Source of the DNA: Dehalococcoidia bacterium
GTDB lineage: Bacteria; Chloroflexota; Dehalococcoidia; GIF9; AB-539-J10
Length of the DNA: 46,010 nucleotides
Assembly: GCA_022866545.1 (NCBI GenBank)
Contig: JALHUO010000046.1
Coordinates: 1-46,010 of the forward strand
Direction of reading: 5' to 3'
Positions 16,472 to 42,841 of the stretch are shown here, one piece after another; the first letter of the stretch is position 1, and each line of letters opens with the position of its first letter. A program made the translations under genes and the position numbers. A model generated the notes under the pieces. It was not told the DNA's origin, made no database searches, and was given only the letters and a program-made list of their open reading frames with translations.

Positions 16472-17449
16472 GTGATTGTAGTTCAAACTCCTTTGCGAAT
16501 AAGTTTTGTCGGAGGAGGCACTGATTTTGATGACTTTTACTTATCCCAGGGTGGGGCGGTCATTAGTACTGCCATTGATAAATATGTATTTGTCATTGTA
16601 AAGGAAAGATTTGATGATCTAATTTGCCTGAACTACACGCAGAGAGAGCGAGTAGAAAGGGTAGATGACATCGGCCATGAACTTGTCAGAGAGGCTATGA
16701 GAATAACGGGAGTAGGCAAAGGGATAGAGATTACAACCCTTGCTGATGTACCTGCGGAGGGGACTGGCCTTGGTTCCTCGAGTAGTGTTACTGTCGGATT
16801 GCTTCAAGCCCTGTATGCTTACCAGGGTGAACTCAGGACAATCGAGACTTTAGCTCAGGAAGCATGCCGCATCGAGATAGACATACTGAAGCACCCCATA
16901 GGAAGACAAGATCAATACATCGCAGCATACGGCAATCTTCGCTTCATCACCTTCAGCGATGCTGGCGTTGAAGTTGAGAAAGTCGAGCTTCCCTCCCAAG
17001 AGAAGAGAAGGCTAAACGATTCTCTCCTCTGTTTCTATACGGGCATGACCAGAAAAGCAAGTGAAATTTTAGAGGAGCAGAAAGCCAACATAAATGACCG
17101 CCTTAGCGTGCTGGGTGAAATGAAAAAGCTTGCCTTCCGAGCGAAAGGTGCTATCCTGCAAGGTGCTTTTGATGAGTTGGGAGAGATTTTGCACTCAAGT
17201 TGGGAATTAAAAAAGACCCTTGCCAGCAAGATAACCAATCCCCAGATAGACGAAAGGTACGAAGCTGCTCGGAAGGCGGGAGCCATCGGCGGCAAGATTA
17301 CCGGAGCTGGTGGGGGTGGTTTTTTGCTTCTATATTGTCCGAAGGAAAAACAGGATGCAGTGAGAAAAACCCTCAAACTTCGAGAGCTTCCTTTCCGCTT
17401 TGAGTCAGACGGAAGCAAAGTAATTTTCAACTATAGGAGAGGCACTTGA
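16472..17449 (+). CDS. hddA: GHMP kinase, D-glycero-alpha-D-manno-heptose-7-phosphate kinase-like
   Basis: 325 aa with a GTG start after GGAGGGAG. PLRISFVGGGTDF N-terminus, GHMP motif PAEGTGLGSSSS and C-terminal GAGGGGF. Sits in an operon with gmhA, gmhB and a nucleotidyltransferase. Confidence 0.75.
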   Translation: MIVVQTPLRISFVGGGTDFDDFYLSQGGAVISTAIDKYVFVIVKERFDDLICLNYTQRERVERVDDIGHELVREAMRITGVGKGIEITTLADVPAEGTGLGSSSSVTVGLLQALYAYQGELRTIETLAQEACRIEIDILKHPIGRQDQYIAAYGNLRFITFSDAGVEVEKVELPSQEKRRLNDSLLCFYTGMTRKASEILEEQKANINDRLSVLGEMKKLAFRAKGAILQGAFDELGEILHSSWELKKTLASKITNPQIDERYEAARKAGAIGGKITGAGGGGFLLLYCPKEKQDAVRKTLKLRELPFRFESDGSKVIFNYRRGT

Positions 17450-18009
17450 ACGTCTTGGACACCATAAGGAAATACATTTCTGATATCAATGTAGCTTTAG
17501 GGAGGCTTCCGATAGACAAGATTGCTGAAGTTGTTGATTTGTTAGAAAAAGCACGACTTGAAGGCAATAAAGTTTTCATTTTTGGCAATGGCGGTTCAGC
17601 AGCTACCGCCTCACATTTCGCCAGTGACCTTTCAAAAGGAGCTATCAGCGAGGGAAAGCCAAGGATAAAGGCTTTTGCCTTGACTGACAACATACCCCTG
17701 CTTACAGCTTGGGCGAATGACACCTCTTATGAAAATGTTTTCGCTGAACAAGTGGAGAACTGTGTTGACCCTGGAGACATTGTGATTGGTATCAGCGGTA
17801 GTGGCAGTTCGCCGAATGTGCTTAAAGGTGTAAAAGTGGCGAAGAACAAGGGAGCTAATACCATCGGCTTTATTGGTTTCGACGGTGGGAAGCTTAAAAG
17901 CCTTGTGGATATTGCCATTATAGTGCCGAGCCATAATATGGAGCAGGTCGAGGATATACACCTGCTTCTTGAACATGTCATCACCACCTGTTTAAGAGAG
18001 GCACTTTAA
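17446..18009 (+). CDS. gmhA: phosphoheptose (sedoheptulose-7-phosphate) isomerase, SIS domain
   Basis: 187 aa. VFIFGNGGSAATASHFASDL, ISGSGSSPN and HLLLEH motifs. TTG start overlaps the hddA stop. Confidence 0.85.
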   Translation: MNVLDTIRKYISDINVALGRLPIDKIAEVVDLLEKARLEGNKVFIFGNGGSAATASHFASDLSKGAISEGKPRIKAFALTDNIPLLTAWANDTSYENVFAEQVENCVDPGDIVIGISGSGSSPNVLKGVKVAKNKGANTIGFIGFDGGKLKSLVDIAIIVPSHNMEQVEDIHLLLEHVITTCLREAL

Positions 18010-18010
18010 G

Positions 18011-18991
18011 ATGAATGTCCTGGTTACCGGCGGGGCAGGATACGTCGGAAGCATCGTTACCGGGCATTTACTACAACAGAAACACAAGGTAATTGTCGTA
18101 GATAATCTGCAACAAGGTCATAAGGAAGCAGTCCTGCCTCCGGCTGAGTTCGTTTTGACTGATATCTGCGATACATCAAGCCTTGAGAGCGCCTTCCGCC
18201 GGTTCAAGATTGATGCTGTAATGCACATGGCAGCCGAGACCGTAGTGGAATATTCCATGACCGATCCCAAAAGGTACTTTCATACCAATCTGCTGGGTGG
18301 GATGAACCTTCTTAATGCCATGCTGAAGCACGGTGTAGACAGGATCATCTATTCTTCTACTGCTGCTGTCTATGGTGAGCCCCACGGTATTCCCATAGAG
18401 GAAGACCATCCTGAAACTCCGATAAATAGCTACGGAGAATCAAAGTTGATGTTCGAGCGTATTCTGGACTGGTATGGCAGAGCCTATGGGCTAAAGCATA
18501 TATCTTTCAGGTATTTTTGTGCTGCTGGGGCAACAGAGCTTTTGGGTGAAGACCATCGTCCTGAGACCCACCTCATCCCGAACGTCCTTAAAGCAGCCTT
18601 GAACGAAAAAAATGCGGTTTCTGTATTTGGCACAGACTACCCGACGGAAGATGGAAGCTGCATCCGGGACTTCGTTCATGTGGTGGATATTGCCCGAGCT
18701 CATCTCGTAGCTATGGAGAAGATAGATAGTCTGAACGGGAACATCTATAACTTAGGAAATGGCAAGGGGTATTCGGTGCTCGAGGTCATCAAAATTGCAG
18801 AGAAAGTTGCAGGCGTGAGGATCCCCGTAAAATCTTGCCCCCGCCGTCTTGGAGACCCTGCAATACTAGTGGCCAGTGCAGACCGAGCTATGCGAGAATT
18901 AGGCTGGAAGCCTCAATTTTCCAGACCCGAAGATATCATCGAGAGCGCCTGGCAGTGGCTCAAGGGCCATCCTGATGGATACAAGCAATAG
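18011..18991 (+). CDS. galE: UDP-glucose/UDP-hexose 4-epimerase
   Basis: 326 aa. VLVTGGAGYVGS Rossmann motif, SSTAAVYG, YGESKLMFE (YxxxK), and RYFCAAGA and IRDFVHVVD typical of GalE. Confidence 0.85.
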   Translation: MNVLVTGGAGYVGSIVTGHLLQQKHKVIVVDNLQQGHKEAVLPPAEFVLTDICDTSSLESAFRRFKIDAVMHMAAETVVEYSMTDPKRYFHTNLLGGMNLLNAMLKHGVDRIIYSSTAAVYGEPHGIPIEEDHPETPINSYGESKLMFERILDWYGRAYGLKHISFRYFCAAGATELLGEDHRPETHLIPNVLKAALNEKNAVSVFGTDYPTEDGSCIRDFVHVVDIARAHLVAMEKIDSLNGNIYNLGNGKGYSVLEVIKIAEKVAGVRIPVKSCPRRLGDPAILVASADRAMRELGWKPQFSRPEDIIESAWQWLKGHPDGYKQ

Positions 18992-19751
18992 CCGCGTCAC
19001 CAAAGCGATGATACTTGCCGCAGGAGAAGGGACCAGGCTAAGGCCACTCACATTGGAAACCCCGAAGGTGCTCTTACCTGTAGCGGGTGTCCCTTTGATT
19101 TACTATACCCTTACCTGGCTCAGAAGCCATGGCATAGGAGAAGTATGCATCAATCTCCATCACCTGGCTAACAGGATAAAGGAGTCACTTGGAGATGGCT
19201 CTAGGTTCGGAGTCAAAGTGCATTACTCTGTCGAAGAAAGCCTGCTTGGGACTGCTGGTGGTGTGAAAAAAGTGGAGCACTTTTTTGATACCACTTTCGT
19301 TGTTGTCTACGGTGATGTCCTTACTGACTTCAATCTCTCAGCCATGATGGCATTTCATCAAAGGAAAAAGGCTATAGCCACGCTGGCAGTTACCAGAGTA
19401 TCCAATCCTTGGGAGACAGGCATCGTGAAAATGAATCGGGAGGGGAGGATTATTTCCTGTATCGAAAAACCCCCTAGGGGAACCGAAATGGGGAACATGG
19501 CAAATGGTGGGGTTTATGTCCTGGAAAGACAAGTTCTCGACTTCATTCCAAATCAAGGCTATTGCGATTTCGCCTACGACGTCTTTCCTAGGCTTGTAAG
19601 AGCGAACTTTCCTGTCTACGGGTATGTGCTTGGACACGAAGATTACCTCATTGACATTGGCGCCATTGACAAATATCTCAAAGCGAATGAGGACGTAAAA
19701 TCAGGGAAAGTGAAAATGACGTATGAAGAACAGAGCAGTGTTCCTGGATAG
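18975..19751 (+). CDS. hddC: sugar-1-phosphate nucleotidyltransferase (heptose-1-phosphate guanylyltransferase-like by context)
   Basis: 258 aa. ILAAGEGTRLRPLT..PKVLLPV signature, then YGDVLTD. Alternative start at 19008. Specificity is inferred only from the hddA/gmhA/gmhB neighbours. Confidence 0.65.
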   Translation: MDTSNSRVTKAMILAAGEGTRLRPLTLETPKVLLPVAGVPLIYYTLTWLRSHGIGEVCINLHHLANRIKESLGDGSRFGVKVHYSVEESLLGTAGGVKKVEHFFDTTFVVVYGDVLTDFNLSAMMAFHQRKKAIATLAVTRVSNPWETGIVKMNREGRIISCIEKPPRGTEMGNMANGGVYVLERQVLDFIPNQGYCDFAYDVFPRLVRANFPVYGYVLGHEDYLIDIGAIDKYLKANEDVKSGKVKMTYEEQSSVPG

Positions 19752-20277
19752 GGATGGCACTATTGCTCGGGATGTTCACTACTGCCGGCGGGCGGAGGAT
19801 TTCGAGCTGCTTTCCACCGTTCCCGAGGCAATAAAGCTTCTAAATGACAGCGGTTTCAAGGTTATAGTCATCACCAACCAGTCGGGTATTGCTAGAGGCT
19901 ATTTTACCGAAGAGGCACTGGCTCTAATTCACCAAAAGATGGAAGAGGAACTTGCCAGGCACAGTGCTAAAGTGGATGCTATATATTATTGCCCGCATCA
20001 TCCTGATGACGGCTGCGACTGTCGGAAGCCCAAGACTGGTCTTTTTCTCTTAGCTGCTGAAAAAATGGACGTTGATTTCAATTTGTCCTACGTGGTTGGG
20101 GACTTGCCCATGGATATAGAAGCTGGCAAAGCTTTAGGCTGTAAGACGGTTCTTGTAACCACGGGACCTAAGGCAGGAGAAGATATTCTTGACCCACCCG
20201 ACTACACTGCGAACAGCCTTATTAAAGCAGCCCTGTGGATAACAAAAGATGCCAATGTGGAAAATTCAGGATTGTAG
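19723..20277 (+). CDS. gmhB: D,D-heptose 1,7-bisphosphate phosphatase (HAD-IIIA)
   Basis: 184 aa. FLDRDGTI, ITNQSG and CPHHPDDGCDCRKP (zinc-binding insert typical of GmhB), then VGD..D. Confidence 0.85.
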   Translation: MKNRAVFLDRDGTIARDVHYCRRAEDFELLSTVPEAIKLLNDSGFKVIVITNQSGIARGYFTEEALALIHQKMEEELARHSAKVDAIYYCPHHPDDGCDCRKPKTGLFLLAAEKMDVDFNLSYVVGDLPMDIEAGKALGCKTVLVTTGPKAGEDILDPPDYTANSLIKAALWITKDANVENSGL

Positions 20278-20566
20278 TTCCGTTGGTTTGGGTCTTAAGA
20301 TGCTATCAGGCAAGACAGTATTCCCATTCTATTGATAACTGTGTTTTTGTTGGTGAAGATTGTAATGAGTGTGAAATCTCATCACACGTTTGCTTGTACC
20401 CTTGTACGTGTAATAGCATAATACATAAATAATAGAACAAGAAACACCGCAGGTATGTGGGACTATGACAGTTAGCTAAGATAAGTTGCTGTGAAACAGA
20501 TAGATGAAATGCCCTTTCTGGAAGAACAATAAACTGGGAAAGGAAGCACACGATGGTGAGCTCGAT

Positions 20567-21280
20567 ATGAAGAAGTGTGTGCTGTCAACTTGGAGAGAAA
20601 CATTAAGCGATGTTCTAGCAAATGCAGGTGCGGCTTACAGATGCGTTTCAAAGAGGATACATCAATCGCCTCAAGAGAACAGGCTAATCCGGTGGTTTAG
20701 AGATAACGGAGACAAAACGCTTCGGCTTAATTATGATTTGGATGGTAACTCATTAGTGTTCGACATGGGGGGTTATGAAGGACAGTGGGCAAGTGATATT
20801 TTTTCAAAGTATTGTTGTACAATTCATGTTTTTGAGCCGGTAATAGAATTTGCAGATAAGATTGAAAAGAGGTTTTCGAGAAACAGGAAGATATTCGTCC
20901 ACAAATTCGGCTTATCAAACGGTAGCAAAAAGGCTGCGATTGCACTGGCGCAAGATGGGTCCTCACTTTTCAGACAGGGCAAGCAGACTAGAGAGATAAG
21001 CCTTGTCAGAGCGGTAGACTTTCTGCGAGAGAACAATATCCAAAATATTGAACTGATGAAGATTAACATTGAGGGAGGGGAATATGACCTTCTCGACCAT
21101 TTAATTGACACTGGATTCGTAAGGCATATTAAGAATATACAGGTTCAGTTTCATGACTTTGTTCCTAATGCTGAGCTGAGAATGACAGGAATTCAACAAC
21201 GGCTGCAAGAGACACACGCGTTGACCTACCAGTATTCATTTGTTTGGGAGAATTGGAGACTTAAAGATAATGTTTCATGA
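20567..21280 (+). CDS. FkbM-family methyltransferase
   Basis: Contains VFDMGGYEGQW, HVFEP and MKINIEGGEYDLL (FkbM signature). The track ORF starts at 20504; Met22 (20567) gives the usual length. The gene is visibly AT-rich. Confidence 0.75.
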   Translation: MKKCVLSTWRETLSDVLANAGAAYRCVSKRIHQSPQENRLIRWFRDNGDKTLRLNYDLDGNSLVFDMGGYEGQWASDIFSKYCCTIHVFEPVIEFADKIEKRFSRNRKIFVHKFGLSNGSKKAAIALAQDGSSLFRQGKQTREISLVRAVDFLRENNIQNIELMKINIEGGEYDLLDHLIDTGFVRHIKNIQVQFHDFVPNAELRMTGIQQRLQETHALTYQYSFVWENWRLKDNVS

Positions 21281-21416
21281 TATTTGGGGTACATTATTGC
21301 ATGTGCGCCATGTTCGGCGGATTGTCTTCCAATTGGCAGAGGTGGCAGTGCCCGGAGGGCTGTTTGCTGCCATTATCGAGCGGATAACTCGGGGTTCGCG
21401 GCTAGGCCCTGGCTAA
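21270..21416 (+). pseudogene. 48-codon relic resembling the central part of a class I SAM methyltransferase
   Basis: Hand translation gives MFHDIWGTLLHVRHVRRIVFQLAEVAVPGGLFAAIIERITRGSRLGPG*. This fits the D.....L.HV......l.e..RvL.PGG.l pattern, but no motif I is present. Below the ORF-track size cut-off. Confidence 0.35.
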
Positions 21417-21752
21417 ACGCGCACCAGGAGAAACGGGGAGCGTGATCAAGGGGGAAGGCTTGGCTCTTTTACGAGGTTCAAGAGCTCGCATGGGGCTCGG
21501 CTCTGGGATGGTTTGATAACCAGGCACAAAGGGTGATATATTGTCGGCACCAGAGGCGATGAGGGCTGGATATCGCCTCATCGGGAGTTGAAATGGGAAA
21601 TCCCGGATAGAGTTTTTTCCTGGCTGCTACCCGAGTAACTGGGCAAGGACAAAGATAACTCACCTCGATGGTGAAAAGGCGAGACTGTATAGCTGGGCTT
21701 TAGCGAAGGTCAAATGATAGGCCCTGGTTGAAACTCCTCGGAGGTCATCAGA

Positions 21753-22661
21753 ATGGCCAGAAAGTACATGCATCCTGCAGGCATTCCCCGCGAGATGGGT
21801 CGGCGAGGCCACGAACTGGATGACCGCCTAGCAGGAGTGCTCCATTTGATGGAGCATGCACCTCTGGACGATGTGCATACTGTTCTGGACGTTGGCTTCG
21901 GTGAAGGGCAGATTTCCAAGTGGCTGGCCCAAAGGGGAAAGGTCGTAACCGCCACCGGTATCGAAATCAGTTCGTACGATGTTGACACTGCTGCCCTAAA
22001 GGAGCAATTGGGTATCTCCATTCACGAATGTAAAGCAGAGAAGATGCCCTTTGCAGACAAATCGTTTGATGCAGCAGTGATGAGCCATACCCTAGAGCAT
22101 TGCCCCAATGTGGCGATGGCCCTCGGCGAGCTATGGCGAGTCCTCAGAGAAGGAGGGCGCCTATTTGTTTTTGTCCCGCCGCACGACAACTACGTCTGTG
22201 CTGGACACGTGTCGATGGGGTGGACAGTTGGTCAACTCATGTATGTACTTCTGCTGGCTGGATTCAAGGTGAAGGATGGCATGTTCTTTGACGGTGGCGG
22301 TTACAACATCTGCGGATTCGTAACAAAGGACTCTGCACAAGAACTTCCTCCGTTACGAGGCGACCGCGGGGATATTCGCATTCTAAATGACGCAGGACTA
22401 TTTCCCATGCATATCCTCTCTCGTGAAGCCGCCACGAACTATGAGGGACCATATCTGCGTTCGCATGACGATTTCAACGACGGGTTTTGGGGGAAGATCC
22501 GGTCGGTCAACTGGCCCGCCCATGGATTCGATGATGCCAGTTCCCGTAAGACAATTCTACGCAGGATCGCAGTGCTTATCTCGCGAATATTGCCCACACC
22601 GCTCAGGACACGACTTGCGACAATATTGACCGCGGCAGGAAATTTGTTTCAGGAAAGTTGA
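21753..22661 (+). CDS. class I SAM-dependent methyltransferase with a ~110-aa C-terminal extension
   Basis: 302 aa. Motif I VLDVGFGEGQ, then MPFADKSFDAAVMSHTLEH and WRVLREGGRLFVFVP. Confidence 0.8.
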   Translation: MARKYMHPAGIPREMGRRGHELDDRLAGVLHLMEHAPLDDVHTVLDVGFGEGQISKWLAQRGKVVTATGIEISSYDVDTAALKEQLGISIHECKAEKMPFADKSFDAAVMSHTLEHCPNVAMALGELWRVLREGGRLFVFVPPHDNYVCAGHVSMGWTVGQLMYVLLLAGFKVKDGMFFDGGGYNICGFVTKDSAQELPPLRGDRGDIRILNDAGLFPMHILSREAATNYEGPYLRSHDDFNDGFWGKIRSVNWPAHGFDDASSRKTILRRIAVLISRILPTPLRTRLATILTAAGNLFQES

Positions 22662-22696
22662 ATTGATCTCTTTTCAACTCCCTAAACCCCCCAATC

Positions 22697-23302
22697 TTGG
22701 AGGACTTAGGAAGCTGGGGGATACCCCCTAAACGAGGTGTGATGAATGAGGATTGGAGATGCGGGCAGATTGACTATGTGAGCGATATGGCCTGGATCCG
22801 GGTTCCCGCGGCGAGCTTCGACCATCTGTTCTGCGCAGAGGTTTTGGAACACGTGCGTGAGTCGATAGTTGCAGTCAAGGAGTTCAATCGCATACTTAAG
22901 CTTGGCGGATATCTCTTTTTATCAGCGCCTTTGGGGGCGGGCCTGCACCAGCAGCCGTATCACTATCACGGGGGATTCACGCCACACTTTTATCGTAAGT
23001 TCCTACCTGAGTATGGCTTTGGGACCCTAAAGATGGCGCCCAACGGGGGGTCCTTCCGCCATTCCCTTCAGGAAGTCAATCGTGCGTGGGGCATAATTCA
23101 GTCACATCGCAACTACAGAAGGCGGCATCCCATGTGGTGGGTGCTGAGGTTGGCATTCAGCCATTTCATCCCGATCTGGTTCTCTCGATTGGACGACGAG
23201 ATATTTATCGAGGAATTCACTGTTGGCTACCATATCGAAACTCAGAAAGTAGGGGGGTCAACTGAGAAGCAAAGCCTGAATCTTTGTACATCCGTTTTAT
23301 GA
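22697..23302 (+). CDS. methyltransferase-like protein lacking a canonical N-terminal SAM-binding motif (possibly decayed)
   Basis: 201 aa with a TTG start. VPAASFDHLFCAEVLEHV and FNRILKLGGYLFLSAP match motifs post-I to III. Only a degenerate LEDLGSWG occupies the motif I position, and the frame opens just 30 nt upstream. Confidence 0.5.
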   Translation: MEDLGSWGIPPKRGVMNEDWRCGQIDYVSDMAWIRVPAASFDHLFCAEVLEHVRESIVAVKEFNRILKLGGYLFLSAPLGAGLHQQPYHYHGGFTPHFYRKFLPEYGFGTLKMAPNGGSFRHSLQEVNRAWGIIQSHRNYRRRHPMWWVLRLAFSHFIPIWFSRLDDEIFIEEFTVGYHIETQKVGGSTEKQSLNLCTSVL

Positions 23303-27264: not shown

Positions 27265-27434
27265 ACAGATGCGGCACCAGCTCAAACGAAACAGCATCTG
27301 TGAAAGAGTTTGCATCGGCTGCCATATACGCATGAAAAAGGAGATCTATGTGAAGATCTGTCGGTCAAGGATACCCATAGCTATAAGCTATGTTTGTTTC
27401 TGAGAAAACTTTGAAAGGAGGCTGTGGTATAAAG

Positions 27435-31470: not shown

Positions 31471-31491
31471 CCTCTGGAGTGGATAGGAAGC

Positions 31492-32772: not shown

Positions 32773-33028
32773 AAATGTCTCCGTGTCATTGAGTGGTTCA
32801 CATGTGGAGAAAGAGCGTAGCATTCTGATAAGCCTTGGAGCCGAGGCAGCCAACTGAGTGAGGACATGCCTGTAATGAAGTCCTGTGCAGAAGTCCATTT
32901 TGCCATGTGTTGGGATTTGCCGGGTAGAGACGCCCGAGATCGCTGTATTAGGTCCGTTGTCTGACAAAGTGGATTGCGGGAACCCGGATTGCCGCCCGTA
33001 CCAGACGCAACATGCTGTCTCCTCTCGC

Positions 33029-35453: not shown

Positions 35454-36458
35454 CTATTGAATGGGAGGGCTGACATTCTGTCCATCGGAAAACCTGGCTT
35501 TTTTGTGCATCCAATTGACCGTTATCTCAACAGCCTGTTCTAATGTGTAGGGCAAATCATCGGCTACAAGGGGCTCCAGGTTGAATACGAAACTGGCCAG
35601 CATATTCCTGAGACGAGAAGTCGACAAAGGCGGCACGTTCCACCCCATGAACTTCATTATGTCGCCCACTCTCGCTAGCGCCTTGAGGACCGGAACCGGC
35701 ACTTGATGAATCCTTGGCGCCTGAAACGCCTCCTGGACAAGATTGACCCATGCACGCATGTTCGTCGGTGGATAATCAGCCAGGTAGAATGTCTTGCCGT
35801 GTACTTTGTCTGCTGATGCTTTTAGAAGTCTATCTAACTGGCAAACTGTATTCCCGACAAACCCCAGTGATTGGTTGACATTACTGCCACCGGGGTGGAC
35901 ATAGAGGCGGTTTTGTATTGCCTCGAACAGGTTCTTGTATGGCATGTCAAACCAGGGCCCCCAGATTCCGATGGGGCGGACAATCGTCCAGGAATATGGC
36001 AACTCGCTTGCCTCCCGCACCACCTTTTCTCCCAGCATTTTACCCTGGCCATAAAGGGTGTCAGGACAATAGTCGGTGTCATCCTTCGGTTGATACCCCG
36101 TCCTGCAGACAAGCATGGTTGAAACAAAGATGACCCTCTCCAGGTTGGGCAAGTCTCTTGCCGCTGAAATCAGGTTCCTTACACCTTCATAGTTGGTGGC
36201 ATAGTCTTCAAGCTTTCTTCCCCGGTCTGCTGTACCGGTTGTGGCAGCCATATTGACGACATAGGTTGGAGAGAAGCGGGCAATCTCTGTCCGTAGGAGC
36301 TGCGAGTCCAGGATATCCACCTGTCTCCAACAAGGCCGGTGCTGAGCATTCCTGGGGGGAGCGATATCGAAGTTGAGTACCTCTTCCCCTCTGGATAGGT
36401 AGTGCTCAACGAGGTTGGTACCTATGAAACCAGAACCGCCTGTTATCAGTACTCTCAT
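35454..36458 (-). CDS. NAD-dependent epimerase/dehydratase (extended SDR)
   Basis: 334 aa. VLITGGSGFIGTNL, then YGQGKMLGE (YxxxK). Confidence 0.8.
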   Translation of the reverse strand: MRVLITGGSGFIGTNLVEHYLSRGEEVLNFDIAPPRNAQHRPCWRQVDILDSQLLRTEIARFSPTYVVNMAATTGTADRGRKLEDYATNYEGVRNLISAARDLPNLERVIFVSTMLVCRTGYQPKDDTDYCPDTLYGQGKMLGEKVVREASELPYSWTIVRPIGIWGPWFDMPYKNLFEAIQNRLYVHPGGSNVNQSLGFVGNTVCQLDRLLKASADKVHGKTFYLADYPPTNMRAWVNLVQEAFQAPRIHQVPVPVLKALARVGDIMKFMGWNVPPLSTSRLRNMLASFVFNLEPLVADDLPYTLEQAVEITVNWMHKKARFSDGQNVSPPIQ

Positions 36459-36495
36459 TTCTATCCGTCATTCCGCTCATTCAGCAAACTCTGGT

Positions 36496-37494
36496 CTAGA
36501 ACTCAGCGTCCCGCTTGATGTTGTCCCAGTTCTCCAGAAACCACTTATGCACTTTTTTCAAGCCGTCCTCGAAGTTGGTTTGCGGCTGATAATCAAGAAG
36601 TTTTCTGGCTTTGTCAATTGAGGACCGCAGGTGGGTCTTCACGTCCCAATTCCGCCGGGGGACATGAGCGATACCGGCCTTGTTATTGGTGAGTCTGTTG
36701 ACTATGGAGGCAAGCTCAGCTACCTGGTGCTCGGTGCTAGAGCCAAGATTGATTGCCTCCCCGACTGCCTCTTCCCTGATACCCATTGCCAGCAAGCCTT
36801 TTATTATATCGTCCACATATGTCCAGTCCCTGGTCTCTGTGCCATCGCCGGTGATCGGCAGTGCCTGCCCATTCATGGCCCAGTAGAGGAAGTTCGGTAT
36901 CACGTTCCGATATTTTCCCGGTACTTCCCCGGGACCATATACATTGAAAAACCTGGCATTGACAATGGGAAGATTGTACAGATTGTGGAAGTAGTTGGTG
37001 TATAGTTCGCCGAGCAGTTTGGTTACCTGGTATGGCGTATGCAGACTGATGGAGACATCATGTTCTTCGAACGGTATCTTTGAGTCCAGGCCGTATACGC
37101 CACAGCCGGAGGAGGAATAAACAAATCTTCTCACCCCGGCGATGTTCGCATACTCAAGGACTTTCAGGATTCCCATTCCGTTTACCATCAAATCTGTCTC
37201 CGGATTATCAACCGAATTCTGGTTAGCAAAATGGGCTGCGAGGTGAAAGACATAGTCCGGCTTCTCTTTAAAAACACGCTTCAGCATTTCATCGTCGAGC
37301 ACGCTCCCCCTGACAAATAACACCCGTTCTGATTTGGGAATGTTCCACTCGTACGCTGCCGAGAGATCATCAAGGACGATGATTCTGGCCGCTTCGCCTT
37401 TGATTAATGCCCTGGTGAGATTGGAGCCGATGCACCCTGCCCCACCTGTGACAAGGATGTTCTTGCCTTTATACTTACTTAGGTACTCGTTCAT
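36496..37494 (-). CDS. NAD-dependent epimerase/dehydratase (extended SDR)
   Basis: 332 aa. ILVTGGAGCIGSNL, SSSGCGVYG, YQVTKLLGE (YxxxK) and FFNVYGPG. Confidence 0.8.
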   Translation of the reverse strand: MNEYLSKYKGKNILVTGGAGCIGSNLTRALIKGEAARIIVLDDLSAAYEWNIPKSERVLFVRGSVLDDEMLKRVFKEKPDYVFHLAAHFANQNSVDNPETDLMVNGMGILKVLEYANIAGVRRFVYSSSGCGVYGLDSKIPFEEHDVSISLHTPYQVTKLLGELYTNYFHNLYNLPIVNARFFNVYGPGEVPGKYRNVIPNFLYWAMNGQALPITGDGTETRDWTYVDDIIKGLLAMGIREEAVGEAINLGSSTEHQVAELASIVNRLTNNKAGIAHVPRRNWDVKTHLRSSIDKARKLLDYQPQTNFEDGLKKVHKWFLENWDNIKRDAEF

Positions 37495-38698
37495 TTTGCT
37501 TCTCCTTTATAGCTTCTTCCAAGATCTTCTCAAATTCGTCCGTGATGCTCTCCCAGCTGTATCTTTCAGCGAAGCTCCGTGCTTTCTGACCCAGCTCTTG
37601 TATTTTACCACTTTGAATCAGTTCCATGGCTTTGGCGACAGCGTCCTCAGGCTTATCCACATACACCACGCCGTTATCCTCGCCAAACTCTTTCATTACC
37701 CCGGGAAGTCTGGTGGCAATCACGGGCTTTTTCATTGCCATATACTCATACATCTTGATGGGGACAATGTCCTGCATTATTTTTTCATCAGGGTAAGCCG
37801 GCAGCAGGCATACATCGGAGGCAGCGATAAAAGATGGAATTTCCTCATAGGGCTTCTTGCCGGTGAGGATAATCCTGTCCTTCAAGTTATGTTTTTCACG
37901 TATTTGCTGAAGCGCCTCATAGGCATCGCCTTCGCCAACAACAAGGAGCTTGAGATTAGGATTGTCTATTCGGGCTAGTTGTGAGGCAACCTCTTTCAAG
38001 CCTGAAAATTGGTATAGCCAGCCCATGAAGAAGAGGACAATGTCCTTCCTGGTGAGCCCGTAATGTTGCCTTATGGTGTCACCTTTGGTAACTGGGTCGA
38101 AGCGCTCAATATCAATGCCTGCCCGCAGGATCTGAGTTCGCTCGGGCGAAGCTCCCAGCCCTTTCACGTAGTCCTTGAGTTTCTCGTTAATTGCCAGCAC
38201 TTTGTCGGCTTGTCGCAGTGTCTTGTGTTCTAACAACATGGCGATAGGGTGAAAAGGCTTGAAAGGAATAAGCCTGTGTAATACGTCGATCCAGTAGTAG
38301 ATAAATGGTGTGTTATTTTTCCTGGCGGCCCGCATCGCCAAATAGGTGCTCAAGATGCCGAAGCCGATAATCAGATCGGGACAAGAATCTTTTATTTGAT
38401 GACGGATTTCCTTTCTATAAGAGAATACTGATGAAACATAATCCAGCCAGGGAAGTTTTATGATGCCAGGGCGAATTAGCGTGACGTTTGCGCCATCATA
38501 GAATCTTGATACATTGCTGAACACCTGTCGTTTTGAGCGTAACTCCCTCTTGCCCTGTGTCCTCCATAGAAGCTCATAGTCGATGACACGAACTTCGTGA
38601 CCTTTTAGGGAAAGTCTCTCTATGAGGTGATGCTGCTGGTGTGGGCCTCGCAGCAGCCAGTCGGTATCCTGAACCAGAAGGATTTTCACGCCAGCCAC
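37475..38698 (-). CDS. GT4-family glycosyltransferase
   Basis: 407 aa with a GTG start. LVVGEGDAYE, then VPIKMYEYMAMKKPVIATRLPG. Confidence 0.85.
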   Translation of the reverse strand: MAGVKILLVQDTDWLLRGPHQQHHLIERLSLKGHEVRVIDYELLWRTQGKRELRSKRQVFSNVSRFYDGANVTLIRPGIIKLPWLDYVSSVFSYRKEIRHQIKDSCPDLIIGFGILSTYLAMRAARKNNTPFIYYWIDVLHRLIPFKPFHPIAMLLEHKTLRQADKVLAINEKLKDYVKGLGASPERTQILRAGIDIERFDPVTKGDTIRQHYGLTRKDIVLFFMGWLYQFSGLKEVASQLARIDNPNLKLLVVGEGDAYEALQQIREKHNLKDRIILTGKKPYEEIPSFIAASDVCLLPAYPDEKIMQDIVPIKMYEYMAMKKPVIATRLPGVMKEFGEDNGVVYVDKPEDAVAKAMELIQSGKIQELGQKARSFAERYSWESITDEFEKILEEAIKEKQNERVPK

Positions 38699-38701: not shown

Positions 38702-39625
38702 TTACTTCTTGCTATAAACCCGTTTCATCCATTCAATGGTCTTCGGGATACCTTCTTCCAGGGGTATCTTCGGGGTATGCTTCAAGTCTCTTCTGGCTTT
38801 GGAAAAGTCCATGTGCTTGACTTTGGTGGTAAAAGGTTCCGCCTCCTTGTAAGTGACTTTGGAATCATTTTTGCCTAGATTCTTCAGTATAAGATCGGAG
38901 ACGTATTTTATCTCATGTTCCCATTCCTCTTTGCTCCCGATGTTGTAGACCTCTCCCGGTTTGAAATTATCAACTATATTAGCAAAGGTGCGGCAGGTAT
39001 CTTCGACATAGTCGAAGATGCGGCGGTGACCCAGGTAGACGGTATAAGGCTCGTCATTTAGGGCTTTATGGATAAAGGCGGGGATGACTCCTCGGTAGGG
39101 GCTATAGTATTCGTGGGGGCCGTAGGCGTTGACCGGTCGAACCCTTACGGTTTCAGTCCCAAACATGGCTGCTGAATTCAGTACCTGGAGCTCGCCCACC
39201 CACTTGGTCATAGCATAATCGTTCATTTGCTTTATGGGCACTTTGTCCATCACATCCTCACTCATCACCCTGTCGTAGTCACCATACACTTCCGCGCTGG
39301 AAAAGAATATCATTCTGAACTTCTTCCTTTCCTGGAGGCGGATCACATTCTTGGTACCTATTACATTGGTGAGCCAGAGGTTCTCATAATAATCCTCACC
39401 ATTCCAGCGCCCATACTCTGCGGCCAGGTGATAGACATAGTCAAAGTCATGCTGCTCAAATACTCGCTCAAGCTGGCGGTATTTAGCGACATCGCAGCGG
39501 ATGTAGTTCGGTCCCTCGGAATGCCCCAAATCACATACTCGGACTTCGTGTCTTCTTTTTCTTAGTTCGGGGACGAGGTTTGAGCCGATAAAGCCCAGCC
39601 CGCCGGTAACCAGTATTTTAGCCAT
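38702..39625 (-). CDS. NAD-dependent epimerase/dehydratase (extended SDR)
   Basis: 307 aa. ILVTGGLGFIGSNL, SSAEVYG and YAMTKWVGE (YxxxK). TAATG overlap with the wecB stop. Confidence 0.8.
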   Translation of the reverse strand: MAKILVTGGLGFIGSNLVPELRKRRHEVRVCDLGHSEGPNYIRCDVAKYRQLERVFEQHDFDYVYHLAAEYGRWNGEDYYENLWLTNVIGTKNVIRLQERKKFRMIFFSSAEVYGDYDRVMSEDVMDKVPIKQMNDYAMTKWVGELQVLNSAAMFGTETVRVRPVNAYGPHEYYSPYRGVIPAFIHKALNDEPYTVYLGHRRIFDYVEDTCRTFANIVDNFKPGEVYNIGSKEEWEHEIKYVSDLILKNLGKNDSKVTYKEAEPFTTKVKHMDFSKARRDLKHTPKIPLEEGIPKTIEWMKRVYSKK

Positions 39626-40701
39626 TAATTATCCTCCGTTATAATTCTTACGATTCTCTGGCCTGCTTTGCCATCTCCAAACGGGTTGCTCCACTTGTTT
39701 TCCTTATTAAGCATAAGTCTGGTGCAGCGAAGTATTTTGTCGGGTAGGGTTCCAGCTAGAAGATTCGAGCCAACCTCCAGGGTTTCAGGTCTTTCAGTGT
39801 TGTCCCGTAAGGTAACACAAGGAATACCGAGGATGCAAGCTTCTTCCTGAACGCCGCCGGAGTCGGTGAGGATAAGCCTGGCGTTGCTCTCAAGTTGCAG
39901 GAAGTCGAGGAAACTTACGGGTTCAATTAGTGTAATGTTCTTGGGGTCAAGGCCAAACTCGTTCATCCTCTTCCGAGAATGAGGGTGGACAGGGTAGACT
40001 GTCGGGATGCGAAACTCAGCAGCTACTTTATCCAGACCCTTCAAGATTGAGGCAAATCGTCTCGGGTTGTCAACGTTCTCCTGTCGGTGAAGGGTCACCA
40101 GGAAATATTCTTTGGGGGTAAGATTCAGACTACTAAGAGTATTTCCTTGTTCTTTAGCTATCCCTAGATTCTGATAGACAGCATCAACGATAGTGTTGCC
40201 TGTGACAAAAATCTTCTCTTTAGAGATGCCTTCACCAAGTAGAATCTGTCTAGCTTTCGGTGTAGGGGCAAACAGGTAATCGGAGCAATGGTCAGTTAAG
40301 ATTCGGTTGATTTCCTCGGGCATACTTCTATCGTAGCTTCTTAGTCCGGCCTCGACATGCCCGACTTTTACATGGAGTTTTGTCGCTGCCAAAGCTCCAG
40401 CGAACACAGAGTTGGTATCGCCCTCCACGAGGATGATATGAGGGCTTTCATCCCGCAAGACATTTTCTACGCCTATGAGTATCTTTGCCGTCTGTTGAGC
40501 ATGAGAACCTGAGCCAACCTCAAGATTGTATTTAGCTTGCGGCAACTTTAGCTGCTCAAAGAAGACCCTGTCTAAGTTATGGGAATAATGCTGACCGGTG
40601 TGGAGGATAAAGTAAGTGACTTGCCTCTTCTCCAGCTCCCTGATTACCGGAGACATCTTGATTATTTCGGGGCGAGTACCTAAAGCTATGGCGATTTTCA
40701 T
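39625..40701 (-). CDS. wecB: UDP-N-acetylglucosamine 2-epimerase (non-hydrolysing)
   Basis: Contains IALGTRPEIIKMSP, HTGQHY, VEGDTNS, HVEAGLRS and DSGGVQEEA. The track ORF starts at 40734. Met12 (40701) gives the canonical MKIA... N-terminus and removes the overlap with the upstream gene. Confidence 0.9.
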   Translation of the reverse strand: MKIAIALGTRPEIIKMSPVIRELEKRQVTYFILHTGQHYSHNLDRVFFEQLKLPQAKYNLEVGSGSHAQQTAKILIGVENVLRDESPHIILVEGDTNSVFAGALAATKLHVKVGHVEAGLRSYDRSMPEEINRILTDHCSDYLFAPTPKARQILLGEGISKEKIFVTGNTIVDAVYQNLGIAKEQGNTLSSLNLTPKEYFLVTLHRQENVDNPRRFASILKGLDKVAAEFRIPTVYPVHPHSRKRMNEFGLDPKNITLIEPVSFLDFLQLESNARLILTDSGGVQEEACILGIPCVTLRDNTERPETLEVGSNLLAGTLPDKILRCTRLMLNKENKWSNPFGDGKAGQRIVRIITEDN

Positions 40702-40714
40702 AACAAAATTTCCC

Positions 40715-41005
40715 CTAGATTTTGCGGCATTCAAAAGTAACAGTTCCGCCTTGGGTATAAGGTTCGCCAGGGTCTACACATTGCATATAAGCACGGTCTG
40801 GATCGCGAGATGTCGTTAATCCAAGTTTTACAGGGCACCAATCGTGTTCCAATATGGTAACGTAATGCAGCAAGGTTGATAGTGCATGAGTGCAAACCGC
40901 GTCTGTTTTGTCCAACAGTATTCTTGGGTCGTCTATCACCATTTTGTCACCGACCTTATACACCGGGCATTTGCCTTTAATCTTGCGGACCTTTATCTCC
41001 AGCAT
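40715..41005 (-). CDS. small Cys-containing protein resembling the TIGR04076 family
   Basis: MLEIKVRKIKGKCPVYKVGDKMVIDD....AVCTHALSTLLHYV....CPV....YMQCVDPG....VTFECRKI. 96 aa from the ATG at 41005 (the track ORF uses an upstream TTG at 41059). The family assignment is from memory of the motif pattern. Confidence 0.5.
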   Translation of the reverse strand: MLEIKVRKIKGKCPVYKVGDKMVIDDPRILLDKTDAVCTHALSTLLHYVTILEHDWCPVKLGLTTSRDPDRAYMQCVDPGEPYTQGGTVTFECRKI

Positions 41006-41068
41006 TGGTTGCTCTTGAAAGCCAGTCAATAGTCTAGAGTCGGGAGTACGATTAGTCAAGACACAGCT

Positions 41069-41088
41069 GGTTTGTTGAGCTTGTTGAG
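41069..41088 (+). repeat. short array of the (g)gtttgttgag 9-nt unit
   Basis: ggtttgttgagcttgttgag, between the TIGR04076-like and nucleotidyltransferase genes. Same unit as the arrays at 42826-42912 and 43288-43335. Confidence 0.5.
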
Positions 41089-41121
41089 ATGGCTAGATTG
41101 CCTTATCCCGAAAAACGGGGC

Positions 41122-41517
41122 TCACAATTGTTTTGCTGCGCCCAGAACTTCTTTGAGGAAAGCCCGTTCCTTCATCTGCTCGAATTCTGCCTCGGTGTAA
41201 ACAAGGGGCTCTATGGGTAAGGACGTCAAGTCAAGAATTTTGCCGATACGCTGGTGCATCCTGCCCTCAAATTCGCCCACTATGACAAGGTCTATGTCGC
41301 TGCCCTGGTGGAAGTCGCCTCTGGCGAATGAGCCATAAAGATAAACCCTCTTTACTTTGTGTTTGCTCTTGAGGAGATGGGCAAATTGCCTCAACTCTTC
41401 ATAAATCTCTTGACGGTCTTCAAGATTGACCCGGCATAATTTATAGTGTTGTGCAGGACTCTGCTCAGGATTCCTCTCCCTTGGCGGGAGAGGATCAAGG
41501 TGAGGGTGAACTCTCAT
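41122..41517 (-). CDS. minimal (MNT/KNTase-type) nucleotidyltransferase domain protein
   Basis: 131 aa. VYLYGSFARGDFHQGSDIDLVIV (the GS...D.D pol-beta NTase motif). The first ~16 codons (MRVHPHLDPLPPRERN) are encoded by repeat copy B, so the true start is uncertain. Confidence 0.7.
   Translation of the reverse strand: MRVHPHLDPLPPRERNPEQSPAQHYKLCRVNLEDRQEIYEELRQFAHLLKSKHKVKRVYLYGSFARGDFHQGSDIDLVIVGEFEGRMHQRIGKILDLTSLPIEPLVYTEAEFEQMKERAFLKEVLGAAKQL
41472..41512 (-). repeat. REP-like GC-rich hairpin element, copy B (inverted relative to A and C)
   Basis: Perfect 9-bp stem tcctctccc / gggagagga (41472-41480 / 41486-41494) with a 5-nt loop, followed by caaggtgagggtgaa. Confidence 0.7.
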
Positions 41518-41860
41518 CCCAAAGTCTCCCTTATCCTTTCAAGGACGCCTTCCAGATTTGTAAGAACCTCGTTGTTCCAGAACCTCATTATCCGGTAACC
41601 ACGTTGCTCCAGCCTCTTCGTCCTCTCCTCGTCTCTTTCCTTTGTTCTCTCTTCATTGTGTTGGCCGCCGTCTATCTCAATTATAAGCCCTCTTTGGAGA
41701 CTGGCGAAGTCAACAATGTATGGGCCTATAGGCTGTTGCCTTCGGAACTTCATGCCCTCGAGCTGTCTGTTCCTTAGCTTCATCCAGAGGGCTTTTCAGC
41801 ATCCGTGTACTTCTGGCGAAGTTCGCGAGCGAAACCTACCTGTTGTTGGCTCTTTTTCAC
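41514..41860 (-). pseudogene. DUF559 (Vsr-like endonuclease fold) gene with a 1-nt frameshift near the N-terminus
   Basis: The track ORF 41514..41783 encodes (K)ALWMKLRNRQLEGMKFRRQQPIGPYIVDF...IEIDGGQH...RIMRFWNNEV. The -1 frame upstream (GTG 41860 to stop 41780) encodes VKKSQQQVGFARELRQKYTDAEKPSG*. Joined, these give the usual ARELR...T.AE..LW..LR N-terminus. Confidence 0.65.
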
Positions 41861-41864
41861 GGAG

Positions 41865-41903
41865 CCCCCTCACTCTGACTCTCTCCCGTTGTGGGAGAGA
41901 GAA
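41865..41903 (+). repeat. REP-like GC-rich hairpin element, copy C
   Basis: ccccctcactctgact, then a perfect 9-bp stem ctctctccc / gggagagag (41879-41887 / 41893-41901) with a 5-nt loop. Confidence 0.7.
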
Positions 41904-41962
41904 TTATGGTTATCTATGCATTTTGCGGGGTCTTGCCTTCTGAATGCGCTGGTTGTCCGCAA

Positions 41963-42841
41963 TTATTTCCGCCTGGCTAGGGCGTTGAGGATTATGCCGG
42001 TGAAGATGCTCAGTATGCCAGCGATGATGAACAGGGCGGTCAAGACGGCGCTGCCTACGGCTAGCTGGCCTGTTGTGTTGGCGACGTTGATCACCCTGAA
42101 CCCAAAAACGAGGCCGATCACCAACAAGATACCGCCTATGATTCCGAAGACGAACAGTGGTTTCCTCTCAGAAATCATGACGATTATCCGGCTGAGAACG
42201 TCTACGCCGTGCCTGATGGGGTTGAGGGTCGAGCCATCCTTGGTATATATGTTTGAGATGGGCACTTCAGTCACCTTGAGGCCCTTGTCGGAGGCGAACG
42301 TTATCATCTCTGATTCTACGGCGAACCCATTCGCTTTCAAATCCAGCCCGTTTATTGCCTTCGGTGAAAGGGCCCGGAAGCCGGATTCGGAATCGTAGAC
42401 ACTGGTTCTAGAAGCAAACCGGCTCGAGCGGAAAATGACTTTCTTGCCGATGCGGCGGTAGAGGGGAGTCTTGTCTTCCTGGGCTTCTCGCGAGCCGATG
42501 ACGAGGTCAAAACCATCCGAAATAGGCTTGAGGAGAACGGGAATCTCATTAGGGTCATGCTGGGCATCAGCATCCAACAAGACCAACACATCGGGATTTC
42601 TCTTTCTGGCCTCGGTCAGTATGCTCTGGATGGCCGCGCCTTTGCCCCTATTTTCAGGGTGGCGCACTACCGTGGCGCCGGCGAGCTGGGCAACCTTGGC
42701 GGTGTTATCCGTGCTCCCATCGTCAACAACGATGACCTCATCCACATACTGCTTTGTCTGGAGCACTATGCTTCCGACATATCTTGCCTCATTATAGGCA
42801 GCAATCCCAGCCAACACCTTCGGGCGAGTTTGTTGAGTCAT
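41963..42841 (-). CDS. polyprenyl-phosphate glycosyltransferase, GT2 with two C-terminal TM helices (DPM1/GtrB/AglJ-like)
   Basis: 292 aa. IAAYNEARYV, VIVVDDGSTDNT, NRGKGAA and LLDADAQHD (DxD). C-terminal helices LFVFGIIGGILLVIGLVFGF and AVLTALFIIAGILSIFTGIILNAL. Confidence 0.85.
   Translation of the reverse strand: MTQQTRPKVLAGIAAYNEARYVGSIVLQTKQYVDEVIVVDDGSTDNTAKVAQLAGATVVRHPENRGKGAAIQSILTEARKRNPDVLVLLDADAQHDPNEIPVLLKPISDGFDLVIGSREAQEDKTPLYRRIGKKVIFRSSRFASRTSVYDSESGFRALSPKAINGLDLKANGFAVESEMITFASDKGLKVTEVPISNIYTKDGSTLNPIRHGVDVLSRIIVMISERKPLFVFGIIGGILLVIGLVFGFRVINVANTTGQLAVGSAVLTALFIIAGILSIFTGIILNALARRK

Follow-up and report, generated by a model that had tools for sequence, protein, structure and literature searches.

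The 46,010-nt stretch analysed here as a whole (hereafter the window; contig JALHUO010000046.1 of assembly GCA_022866545.1) is, to judge from its flanking genes, chromosomal DNA of an uncultured sediment Dehalococcoidia bacterium (Chloroflexota). After about 12 kb of ordinary metabolic and repair genes it encodes a rhomboid-family protease and an archaeal-type oligosaccharyltransferase, AglB. These are followed by a 26.5 kb island of nucleotide-sugar, glycosyltransferase (GT) and methyltransferase genes with a single flippase gene. On the far side, the island is closed by GlmS, a protein of the 23S rRNA IVP family (IVP) and a family 2 glycosyltransferase (GT2) with two C-terminal transmembrane (TM) helices, hereafter the anchored GT2 (Table 1). 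Pfam and NCBIfam profiles were scanned against 45 plausible genes and 4 alternative open reading frames (ORFs) of the window, and a hydropathy scan covered all its stop-to-stop ORFs of at least 60 amino acids in six frames. Look-ups by exact sequence with the AglB and anchored GT2 of the window gave no recorded match, and genomic context was drawn from homologues. For the relatives, whose loci are labelled L plus a number, the DNA examined comprised about 10 kb around each homologue. From the gene content, it is very probable that the locus serves AglB-dependent N-glycan formation and belongs to a Dehalococcoidia bacterium.

An archaeal-type oligosaccharyltransferase in a bacterial clade

On the NCBIfam model TIGR04154 ('oligosaccharyl transferase, archaeosortase A system-associated'; cutoff 450 bits), AglB reaches 619.3 bits, and it also matches the Pfam families STT3 (6.9e-28) and AglB_core-like (2.1e-22). 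It contains 13 hydrophobic segments within residues 12–515, followed by a soluble C-terminal part. In a phmmer search of the PDB, its best match was Archaeoglobus fulgidus AglB-L (E 1.9e-75, aligned over residues 20–659); every match was an archaeal AglB, and no PglB or eukaryotic STT3 appeared at E≤1e-3. The motifs reTDayyy, FTDHHVAE, TVMEVSP, WWDYGH and IDYMMATSKFYAM align to the acidic-loop D, DHHxxE, TIXE, WWDYG and DK-type motifs, respectively, of the A. fulgidus enzyme. The catalytic motifs are kept across 21 aligned bacterial AglB sequences, over which conservation was counted, with DHHxxE and WWDYGH at least 90% conserved. On these features, the enzyme looks functional.

Among GTDB representatives, the best full-length AglB matches (37–60% identity) came from about 20 Dehalococcoidia, Dehalococcoidales or Chloroflexota metagenome-assembled genomes (MAGs) obtained in many studies, one of them on a 1.2 Mb contig (two closer matches labelled Bathyarchaeia are considered below). 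The next matches were from Methanocellales, Methanosarcinales and ANME-1, at about 40% identity. A neighbour-joining tree (44 sequences, 702 columns, 100 bootstrap replicates), which is a modest method, grouped the Dehalococcoidia and Chloroflexota AglBs in a single clade (bootstrap 100/100) beside Methanocellales, Methanosarcinales and ANME-1. It did not resolve which archaeal group is the sister of this clade, Methanocellales taking that position in 16 of 100 replicates. The bacterial AglB was thus placed in one clade that was probably acquired once. Some of the homologues are already named 'oligosaccharyl transferase, archaeosortase A system-associated [Dehalococcoidia bacterium]' by NCBI, and a full-text literature search returned no paper linking AglB, STT3 or oligosaccharyltransferase to Dehalococcoidia, Chloroflexi or Chloroflexota.

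In more distant Dehalococcoidia and Chloroflexota (L007, L010, L015, L017, L018, L020, L022, L026, L028 and L032), a polytopic protein of 420–520 amino acids is encoded directly after AglB, and in the three cases tested it was in each a Polysacc_synt-type flippase. AglB and the flippase thus seem to form a pair that is conserved as the core of the system in bacteria. Proteins of 576–614 amino acids with 12 TM segments and no Pfam match are also encoded at L012, L017 and L020.

A membrane-anchored GT2 at the opposite border

The hydrophobic helices of the anchored GT2 span residues 229–247 and 266–284, a layout shared with archaeal AglJ equivalogs. Its best NCBIfam match is AglJ (TIGR04182, model positions 6–279 of 293, 155.7 bits), followed by the polyprenyl-phosphate-GalNAc synthase PpgS (130 bits). 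In the PDB, it matches Pyrococcus furiosus DPMS (5MLZ, 2.9e-18), ArnC (3.4e-11, over residues 13–281 and including the TM region) and GtrB (5EKP, 3.6e-4). Its sequence lldaDaqH aligns to vmdaDlqH, the DAD..QH motif, and the residues D90-A91-D92, Q94 and H95 do not vary among 23 homologues. An AlphaFold2 model built on a 23-sequence alignment (82–88% identity) reached a mean pLDDT of 59, too poor for a fold search, and was not used. The DPM1/AglJ-like architecture that the original prediction had assigned to this protein agrees with its homology to DPMS, ArnC and GtrB and with its two C-terminal helices. By these matches it is a polyprenyl-phosphate glycosyltransferase of the Dpm1/AglJ/AglK/ArnC class, not an AglJ equivalog.

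The gene is embedded in an amino-sugar context. Its start overlaps the stop of the IVP gene by 4 nt, which leaves it translationally coupled downstream of GlmS–IVP, and the IVP gene is kept upstream of the GT2 in L001–L005. GlmS is 87% identical in L001 and L003, and in L003, GlmM-like and GlmU-like genes lie further upstream of it. The anchored GT2 is itself 83–87% identical in relatives with wholly different islands, and the arrangement with AglB at one border and this enzyme at the other is kept on an 82-kb contig (L001/L086). A few kb beyond the GT2, after small toxin-antitoxin-like ORFs, L003 carries a split Alg14-like/Alg13-like pair (Glyco_tran_28_C; 13871–14802), also found in L004 and L005. 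In eukaryotes, Alg13/Alg14 add the second GlcNAc of the chitobiose core to lipid-linked GlcNAc.

The GT2 enzymes that adjoin AglB in Methanocellales and Methanosarcinales are true AglJ equivalogs, with AglJ scores of 430–442 bits and PpgS scores of only 69–74, about half that of the anchored GT2. Given this higher PpgS score, the coupling to GlmS (with GlmM- and GlmU-like genes upstream in relatives) and the Alg13/14-like pair in one relative, the most economical reading is that the anchored GT2 would act as an N-acetylhexosamine (HexNAc)-phosphate-polyprenol synthase, like AglK.

No WecA- or PglC-type initiator in the window, and what may start the glycan

Among the real genes of the window, those with at least two strong hydrophobic segments in the six-frame scan encode only MgtC, the rhomboid protease, AglB, the flippase and the anchored GT2. 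None of the window proteins scanned matched the phosphoglycosyltransferase (PGT) families Glycos_transf_4 and Bac_transf, nor the Wzy_C/O-antigen ligase, Wzz or ABC families. Apart from a non-coding stretch of about 1 kb after AglB, no unannotated gap reaches 0.5 kb, and the gaps are too short for genes of these families. Signature expressions for MraY/WecA and PglC gave 0 matches in six frames of the window and 90 loci (91 sequences), although this search had no positive control and lends weak support. In syntenic relatives, no PGT was found within 13 kb to the left of AglB or about 10 kb to the right of the GT2, nor was one found among the polytopic ORFs adjoining AglB in more distant Dehalococcoidia. 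Over about 10 kb, the syntenic flanks of relatives were likewise free of Wzy, Wzz, WaaL and ABC exporter genes. The absence of a WecA/PglC initiator, Wzy, Wzz, WaaL and ABC exporter that had been reported for this DNA is therefore upheld by both scans, and the possibility then raised of a WecA/PglC-type gene just outside the window found no counterpart in the syntenic flanks of relatives. The inventory and coordinates given at that time also hold: six soluble GTs, one flippase, the anchored GT2 and AglB were all recovered with Pfam and NCBIfam. The nucleotide-sugar genes fall into three pathways.

Several observations weigh against the anchored GT2 being the initiator of this particular glycan. 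Its 155.7 bits fall short of the 325 required for an AglJ equivalog, it has further matches to ArnC, PgfS and GtrB-type enzymes, and it resembles a second paralogue, not adjacent to AglB, in one Methanocellales locus (160 bits on AglJ). In Methanocellales and Methanosarcinales, a two-helix-anchored GT2 adjoins AglB, in L027 even overlapping its 3' end, whereas in the window 26.5 kb and a change of strand separate the gene from AglB, and it sits at the far conserved border of the island. Its conservation irrespective of island content would also fit a housekeeping polyprenyl-phosphate-sugar synthase unrelated to the N-glycan, and the evidence for HexNAc as its sugar consists solely of gene neighbourhood and relative profile scores. 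Moreover, the usual bacterial carrier is undecaprenol rather than dolichol, while AglB here is of euryarchaeal type, and the initiating PGT in bacteria often lies far from the variable glycan locus, as with Escherichia coli wecA.

The low AglJ score with the matches to ArnC, PgfS and GtrB-type enzymes, the conservation irrespective of island content and the unlinked position that initiator genes can have also speak for an alternative. In it, a PGT (WecA/MraY- or PglC-like) elsewhere in the genome would initiate the same AglB-dependent glycan, giving a pyrophosphate donor, with the anchored GT2 serving as a GtrB/ArnC/DPM1-type synthase for use outside the membrane or in another glycoconjugate. 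We regard this arrangement as possible but rather unlikely. AglB is the only GT-C enzyme of the window, and a GtrC, ArnT, AglS or PMT-like protein that could use such a donor is not encoded there; nor was a PGT found in the syntenic flanks of relatives over the distances given above. Furthermore, AglB is of a euryarchaeal lineage in which the members characterised so far work with monophosphate donors (PMC8993221), and AglJ equivalogs adjoin AglB in its nearest archaeal relatives. Taken together, the arguments for and against the anchored GT2 as initiator stand about evenly.

The island as a replaceable cassette

The left border (rhomboid protease and AglB) and the right border (GlmS, IVP and the anchored GT2) bracket a strain-specific cassette. 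In close relatives, the 20–26 kb between these borders are completely replaced, and at least six island types were distinguished. On the 82-kb contig, where both borders are present 20.5 kb apart, AglB is followed by a set of DegT, acetyltransferase, GFO-oxidoreductase and UDP-sugar dehydrogenase genes. In other relatives it is followed by RmlA-C-B-D; by genes for an E1-like dehydratase, a reductase, a thiamine diphosphate enzyme and NeuB; by Rml genes together with a flippase and a pyruvyltransferase; or by Fcl and Gmd in inverted order. Seen from the other side, the region beyond GlmS–IVP–GT2 holds either Alg14/Alg13-like genes, GT4s and a Polysacc_synt flippase, or other GT4, FkbM and DegT genes.

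The variation extends into AglB, which falls to 66–69% identity in relatives, with a catalytic core at 77–83% and the C-terminal 180 residues at 39–54%. In metagenomes, AglB alleles drop to 65–75% identity within a few matches, while LeuB in the left flank stays at or above 87%. Its allele diversity far exceeds that of the flanking genes, as would be expected if AglB were part of the variable unit. Base composition varies as well: GC content is about 0.50 in the flanks and reaches the minimum of the window (0.43–0.44) near the flippase gene. To judge from these comparisons, the population structure is that of an O-antigen locus with an oligosaccharyltransferase at its edge.

An alternative is that the product of the island is an envelope polysaccharide or glycolipid (a capsule-like or S-layer-anchoring polymer, for example) made without AglB, next to which the island would lie by coincidence. 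The heptose, colitose/fucose and N-acetylmannosamine (ManNAc) pathways are typical of bacterial O-antigens and capsules, and the low-GC flippase region resembles O-antigen loci. Nevertheless, we consider this improbable, given that the window contains no Wzy, Wzz/PCP, WaaL, ABC exporter, synthase or outer export component, that AglB borders the variable island in every close relative examined, that a flippase directly follows AglB in distant Dehalococcoidia, and that AglB alleles vary as if part of the exchanged unit.

Genes of the island and its borders

The features of the window are listed in Table 1.

Table 1. Genes and other features of the window, with strand and supporting matches
Feature	Position	Strand	Matches and remarks
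Ordinary metabolism and repair genes	left 12 kb		AP-endonuclease-fold protein, class IV aminotransferase, glutamine amidotransferase, MgtC, SbcD/SbcC-like, glyoxalase
Further genes of the same region	left 12 kb		LeuB, LeuA-like synthase, methyltransferase, alpha/beta hydrolase, rhomboid protease
Rhomboid-family intramembrane protease	12315..13031	-	Pfam Rhomboid 6.8e-33; divergent from AglB
AglB, archaeal-type oligosaccharyltransferase (STT3/GT66)	13020..15452	+	Pfam STT3 and AglB_core-like, TIGR04154, PDB match
Non-coding insertion or repeat element, ~0.7 kb, left island border	15455..16159	.	Missing from closest relative L079
Heptose-type nucleotide-sugar operon: HddA-like kinase, GmhA, GalE, HddC/ManC-like nucleotidyltransferase, GmhB	16472..20277	+	NCBIfam
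Three methyltransferase genes (starts 20504, 21753, 22697): FkbM family, class I methyltransferase, 201-aa methyltransferase-like ORF	20504..23302	+	Methyltransf_21, Methyltransf_11, TIGR01444
CgeB-like GT-B glycosyltransferase	23316..24494	+	Pfam Glyco_trans_1_2 4e-25; without TM segments
Soluble GT2	24491..25555	+	Pfam Glycos_transf_2 1.1e-38; EpsE/TuaG-like
MOP-superfamily (Wzx-like) flippase	25714..27264	+	12 hydrophobic segments; Pfam MatE 35.1 (cutoff 24.9)
Class I S-adenosylmethionine methyltransferase (sugar O-methyltransferase-like)	27390..28220	+	Pfam Methyltransf_31/25/11; weak NanM and Pse-methylase matches
GT10 fucosyltransferase-like	28230..29447	+	Pfam Glyco_transf_10 1.8e-14
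GDP-6-deoxyhexose operon: Gmd, Fcl/ColC-like reductase, ColD/E1-like 3-dehydratase	29447..32772	+	NCBIfam, PDB
Two GT4 glycosyltransferases	33029..34198, 34176..35300	-	Pfam Glycos_transf_1 3.3e-32 and 1.9e-18
Two short-chain dehydrogenase/reductase (SDR) sugar epimerases/dehydratases	35454..37494	-	Pfam Epimerase, GDP_Man_Dehyd
GT4 glycosyltransferase	37475..38698	-	Pfam Glycos_transf_1 and Glyco_transf_4
SDR and non-hydrolysing UDP-GlcNAc 2-epimerase (WecB)	38702..40734	-	TIGR00236 432 bits (cutoff 210); Pfam Epimerase
Small accessory genes, right border: TIGR04076 family, MNT-type nucleotidyltransferase, DUF559 endonuclease-like	40715..41783	-	Pfam/NCBIfam
GT2 with two C-terminal TM helices, candidate initiator	41963..42841	-	Pfam Glycos_transf_2 1.5e-26; NCBIfam AglJ and PpgS; PDB DPMS/ArnC
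Four-helix-bundle protein, 23S rRNA IVP family	42838..43287	-	Pfam 23S_rRNA_IVP 8e-32; TIGR02436
GlmS, glutamine-fructose-6-phosphate amidotransferase, conserved right flank	43333..45108	-	Pfam GATase_6 and two SIS domains
Tyrosine phenol-lyase/tryptophanase gene	upstream of GlmS	same as anchored GT2	Cut by window end

The first operon of the island looks like a GDP-D-glycero-D-manno-heptose pathway with an inserted GalE. GmhB (190.9 bits, cutoff 178) and GalE (386 bits, cutoff 262) pass their NCBIfam cutoffs, and for the other three genes HddA, GmhA and HddC rank first or high among the models but stay below their cutoffs. In the second operon, Gmd scores 522 bits on TIGR01472 (cutoff 415) and Fcl 293 bits, below cutoff. 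The third enzyme, of the pyridoxal/pyridoxamine phosphate-dependent type, matches ColD (2GMS, 1.8e-89) and E1 (3BCX, 1.6e-87) in the PDB, with a histidine at the position of ColD His188 (SHH motif). ColD is a GDP-4-keto-6-deoxymannose 3-dehydratase, and colitose is a 3,6-dideoxyhexose typical of O-antigens. The operon is accordingly annotated as a putative GDP-L-colitose gene set, here predicted to feed an N-glycan.

The assignment of the flippase is less firm than the original prediction had it. The protein described there as a Wzx-type flippase does have 12 TM segments, scores above the MatE cutoff and gives a collinear BLASTP match (E 2e-4) to the Polysacc_synt/MurJ-positive flippase that follows AglB in L026. 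However, MatE is its sole Pfam match, the Polysacc_synt models being unmatched, and no PDB sequence was matched. The same gene was considered as a Wzy polymerase, a reading rejected on its MatE and Polysacc_synt homology. As for the four to five methyltransferases, four genes were found, and that starting at 22697 matches half a domain only. This 201-aa ORF (22697–23302) covers the C-terminal half of Methyltransf_11 (positions 48–95 of 95) and may be a truncated or degenerate gene or have a mis-called start.

The left border element at 15455–16159, of about 705 nt, is 78% identical to a segment, accompanied by a 103-nt partial tandem copy, in the unrelated islands of L003–L005. It probably represents a repeat or a small mobile element. 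At the right border, the position of the accessory genes is occupied in relatives (L001 4777–5456; L003 11382–13602) by HEPN/MNT, PemK, HicB-like and DUF559 genes, which are toxin-antitoxin- or defence-like and differ between relatives. Such small genes, which gather between the conserved GT2 and the first sugar gene, mark the right recombination border of the cassette.

Some ORFs were examined and set aside. A 203-aa ORF at 15374–15985 is not considered a gene, being of low complexity, without family match and located in a segment that has no counterpart in L079. A 152-aa ORF at 32885–33343 has no family match and overlaps the 3' end of a GT4 gene, and the other large antisense ORFs likewise have no family match. 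Scanning for promoters and terminators where the two gene sets converge, near 32.9 kb, was uninformative.

The called starts of the rhomboid protease and AglB genes overlap by 12 nt, and the position of the former is kept in L086 and L088–L092. Weak NCBIfam matches of this protease are to GlpG and rhombosortase. It is conceivable that rhomboid processing is linked to N-glycosylated surface proteins.

The host is a Dehalococcoidia bacterium

In the left flank, the window and the relatives L086, L088, L091 and L092 are collinear through to AglB. The collinear stretch runs from the aminotransferase and amidotransferase genes to AglB, with most proteins 77–90% identical (LeuB up to 98%), and the AP-endonuclease gene is also present on most of the collinear contigs, which measure 82–260 kb. 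LeuB returned 120 matches at 87–98% identity, of which the named ones, bar one that is likely mis-binned, are 'Dehalococcoidia bacterium' on contigs of 242–260 kb. For the anchored GT2, metagenomes hold over 5000 homologues; the best are 82–93% identical, and every one named by NCBI is Chloroflexota or 'Dehalococcoidia bacterium', as are the named AglB homologues. An Rfam search of the window and six loci recovered tRNAs only, with nothing diagnostic of domain.

That the window is archaeal and carries an ordinary agl cluster, as the original prediction had implicitly assumed, is highly improbable: the two closest GTDB matches of AglB, L079 (82%) and L039 (73%), are labelled Bathyarchaeia, and L079 is collinear with the window at 79–99% protein identity, but these two contigs measure merely 8.6 and 2.4 kb and stem from a single study (ERP119294), whereas the housekeeping flank is 77–98% identical to and collinear with 82–260 kb contigs whose proteins NCBI names Dehalococcoidia, the remaining close AglB relatives are all Dehalococcoidia or Chloroflexota MAGs from many studies, and one related AglB locus includes a gene for an F-type ATP synthase a-subunit. 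L079 and L039 are most likely mis-binned Dehalococcoidia DNA. L079 also carries the heptose operon of the window, at 86–96% identity.

A predicted pathway of N-glycan assembly

In the pathway that we propose, the anchored GT2 would transfer one sugar, probably HexNAc, from a UDP-sugar to polyprenyl phosphate at the cytoplasmic face, yielding a monophosphate-linked primer. The six soluble GTs would extend this primer with heptose, fucose/colitose and ManNAc/6-deoxy-HexNAc-type donors made by the island, and the methyltransferases would decorate the oligosaccharide. The single MOP flippase would then translocate the finished lipid-linked oligosaccharide, which AglB would move en bloc to asparagine in sequons of exported envelope proteins. 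The gene content supports the en-bloc logic put forward previously, in which a short, defined, methylated oligosaccharide is handed to an STT3-type transferase.

Euryarchaeota assemble their N-glycans on dolichol phosphate, AglK makes dolichol-phosphate-GlcNAc, and both AglJ and AglK are GT2 enzymes (PMC8993221, PMC4973528). Given this archaeal precedent, together with the lack of any other pathway class and of a second GT-C enzyme in the window and the conserved border position of the anchored GT2, we lean slightly towards the four-step model as a whole, that is, GT2 priming with a monophosphate linkage, extension, flipping and transfer by AglB. Within it, we infer that the GT2 is the initiator, that its sugar is a HexNAc, that the linkage is a monophosphate and that envelope proteins are the acceptors.

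As to its origin, a tentative scenario, which we hold to be plausible yet somewhat short of probable, is that this Dehalococcoidia lineage acquired an entire euryarchaeal-type system (AglB, a Dpm1/AglJ/AglK-type initiator that builds on a polyprenyl monophosphate, and a flippase) once from Methanotecta-like archaea and then turned it into a hypervariable, O-antigen-like surface-glycan locus.

Comparison with known glycosylation systems

Bacterial N-glycosylation from a lipid carrier is, in textbook accounts, restricted to PglB systems in Campylobacterota and Desulfobacterota relatives (PMC4973528). In the window, an AglB with intact motifs is part of the core chromosome in a Dehalococcoidia lineage that is abundant in sediment, and belongs to a clade found across many MAGs. 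If the scenario of origin given above is true, no lipid-linked N-glycosylation of bacteria would have been known before outside the PglB lineages, nor a bacterium that uses a monophosphate-linked oligosaccharide donor. The system may then glycosylate the S-layer-like envelope, and possibly the horizontally acquired archaella, of these bacteria. If it is active, the use of bacterial polyprenyl-phosphate donors by a euryarchaeal oligosaccharyltransferase becomes directly testable, and the AglB alleles paired with differing glycans would form a large natural library for glycoengineering.

The Campylobacter-type pgl system (PglB, PglC and PglK) likewise performs en-bloc N-glycosylation from a bacterial lipid carrier without a polymerase. 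Here, however, the oligosaccharyltransferase is of the AglB type, there is no PglC-type PGT (Bac_transf), and a MOP flippase takes the place of the ABC-type PglK. The lack of a PglB-clade oligosaccharyltransferase, PglC and PglK means that the locus is not a pgl locus.

With Wzx/Wzy O-antigen loci, the island shares the layout of a hypervariable, lower-GC cassette of nucleotide-sugar genes, GTs and a Wzx-like flippase between conserved flanks, with many cassettes per lineage, as well as heptose, colitose/fucose and ManNAc sugars. It differs in lacking Wzy, Wzz and WaaL and in being bordered by an oligosaccharyltransferase. As this enzyme bounds the cassette, the product is predicted to end up on asparagine of proteins and not on lipid A-core.

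The synthases GtrB, ArnC, DPM1, PpgS and GacI resemble the anchored GT2 in their GT-A GT2 domain, the DAD..QH motif and the two-helix C-terminal anchor. They feed single sugars to an extracytoplasmic GT-C partner, whereas no such partner is encoded here other than AglB.

The pattern of AglB parallels a published case of horizontal transfer, in which Dehalococcoidia and Anaerolineae received the archaellum from Methanotecta archaea (PMC12488501). Both concern one recipient phylum, the neighbours of the bacterial clade in the AglB tree overlap Methanotecta, and both cases place archaeal surface systems in a monoderm bacterium. That study makes no mention of AglB and reads the modification of bacterial archaellins as O-glycosylation, and the window is without archaellum genes. 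If the locus is active, archaeal-style glycoprotein envelopes would occur in a phylum whose archaella came from that group of archaea as well (PMC12488501).

In its organisation, the locus resembles a Wzx-type O-antigen locus that lacks Wzy, Wzz and WaaL; in its predicted function, it resembles euryarchaeal agl clusters, such as AglB–AglJ in Methanocellales and Methanosarcinales, AglJ/AglB in Haloferax and AglK/AglB in Methanococcus. These clusters share with the window a TIGR04154 AglB with identical catalytic motifs, a GT2 with a TM hairpin, soluble GTs, a MOP flippase, sugar methyltransferases, the lack of a PGT in the cluster and, by implication, assembly on a polyprenyl monophosphate (PMC8993221, PMC4973528). 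The locus described here differs in its bacterial host, in having a diverged GT2 paralogue at the far end of the island and in a carrier expected to be of the undecaprenol type. The logic of the original prediction is standard for Euryarchaeota, and what is unusual is the bacterial host, the breadth of the AglB clade and the variability of the cassette.

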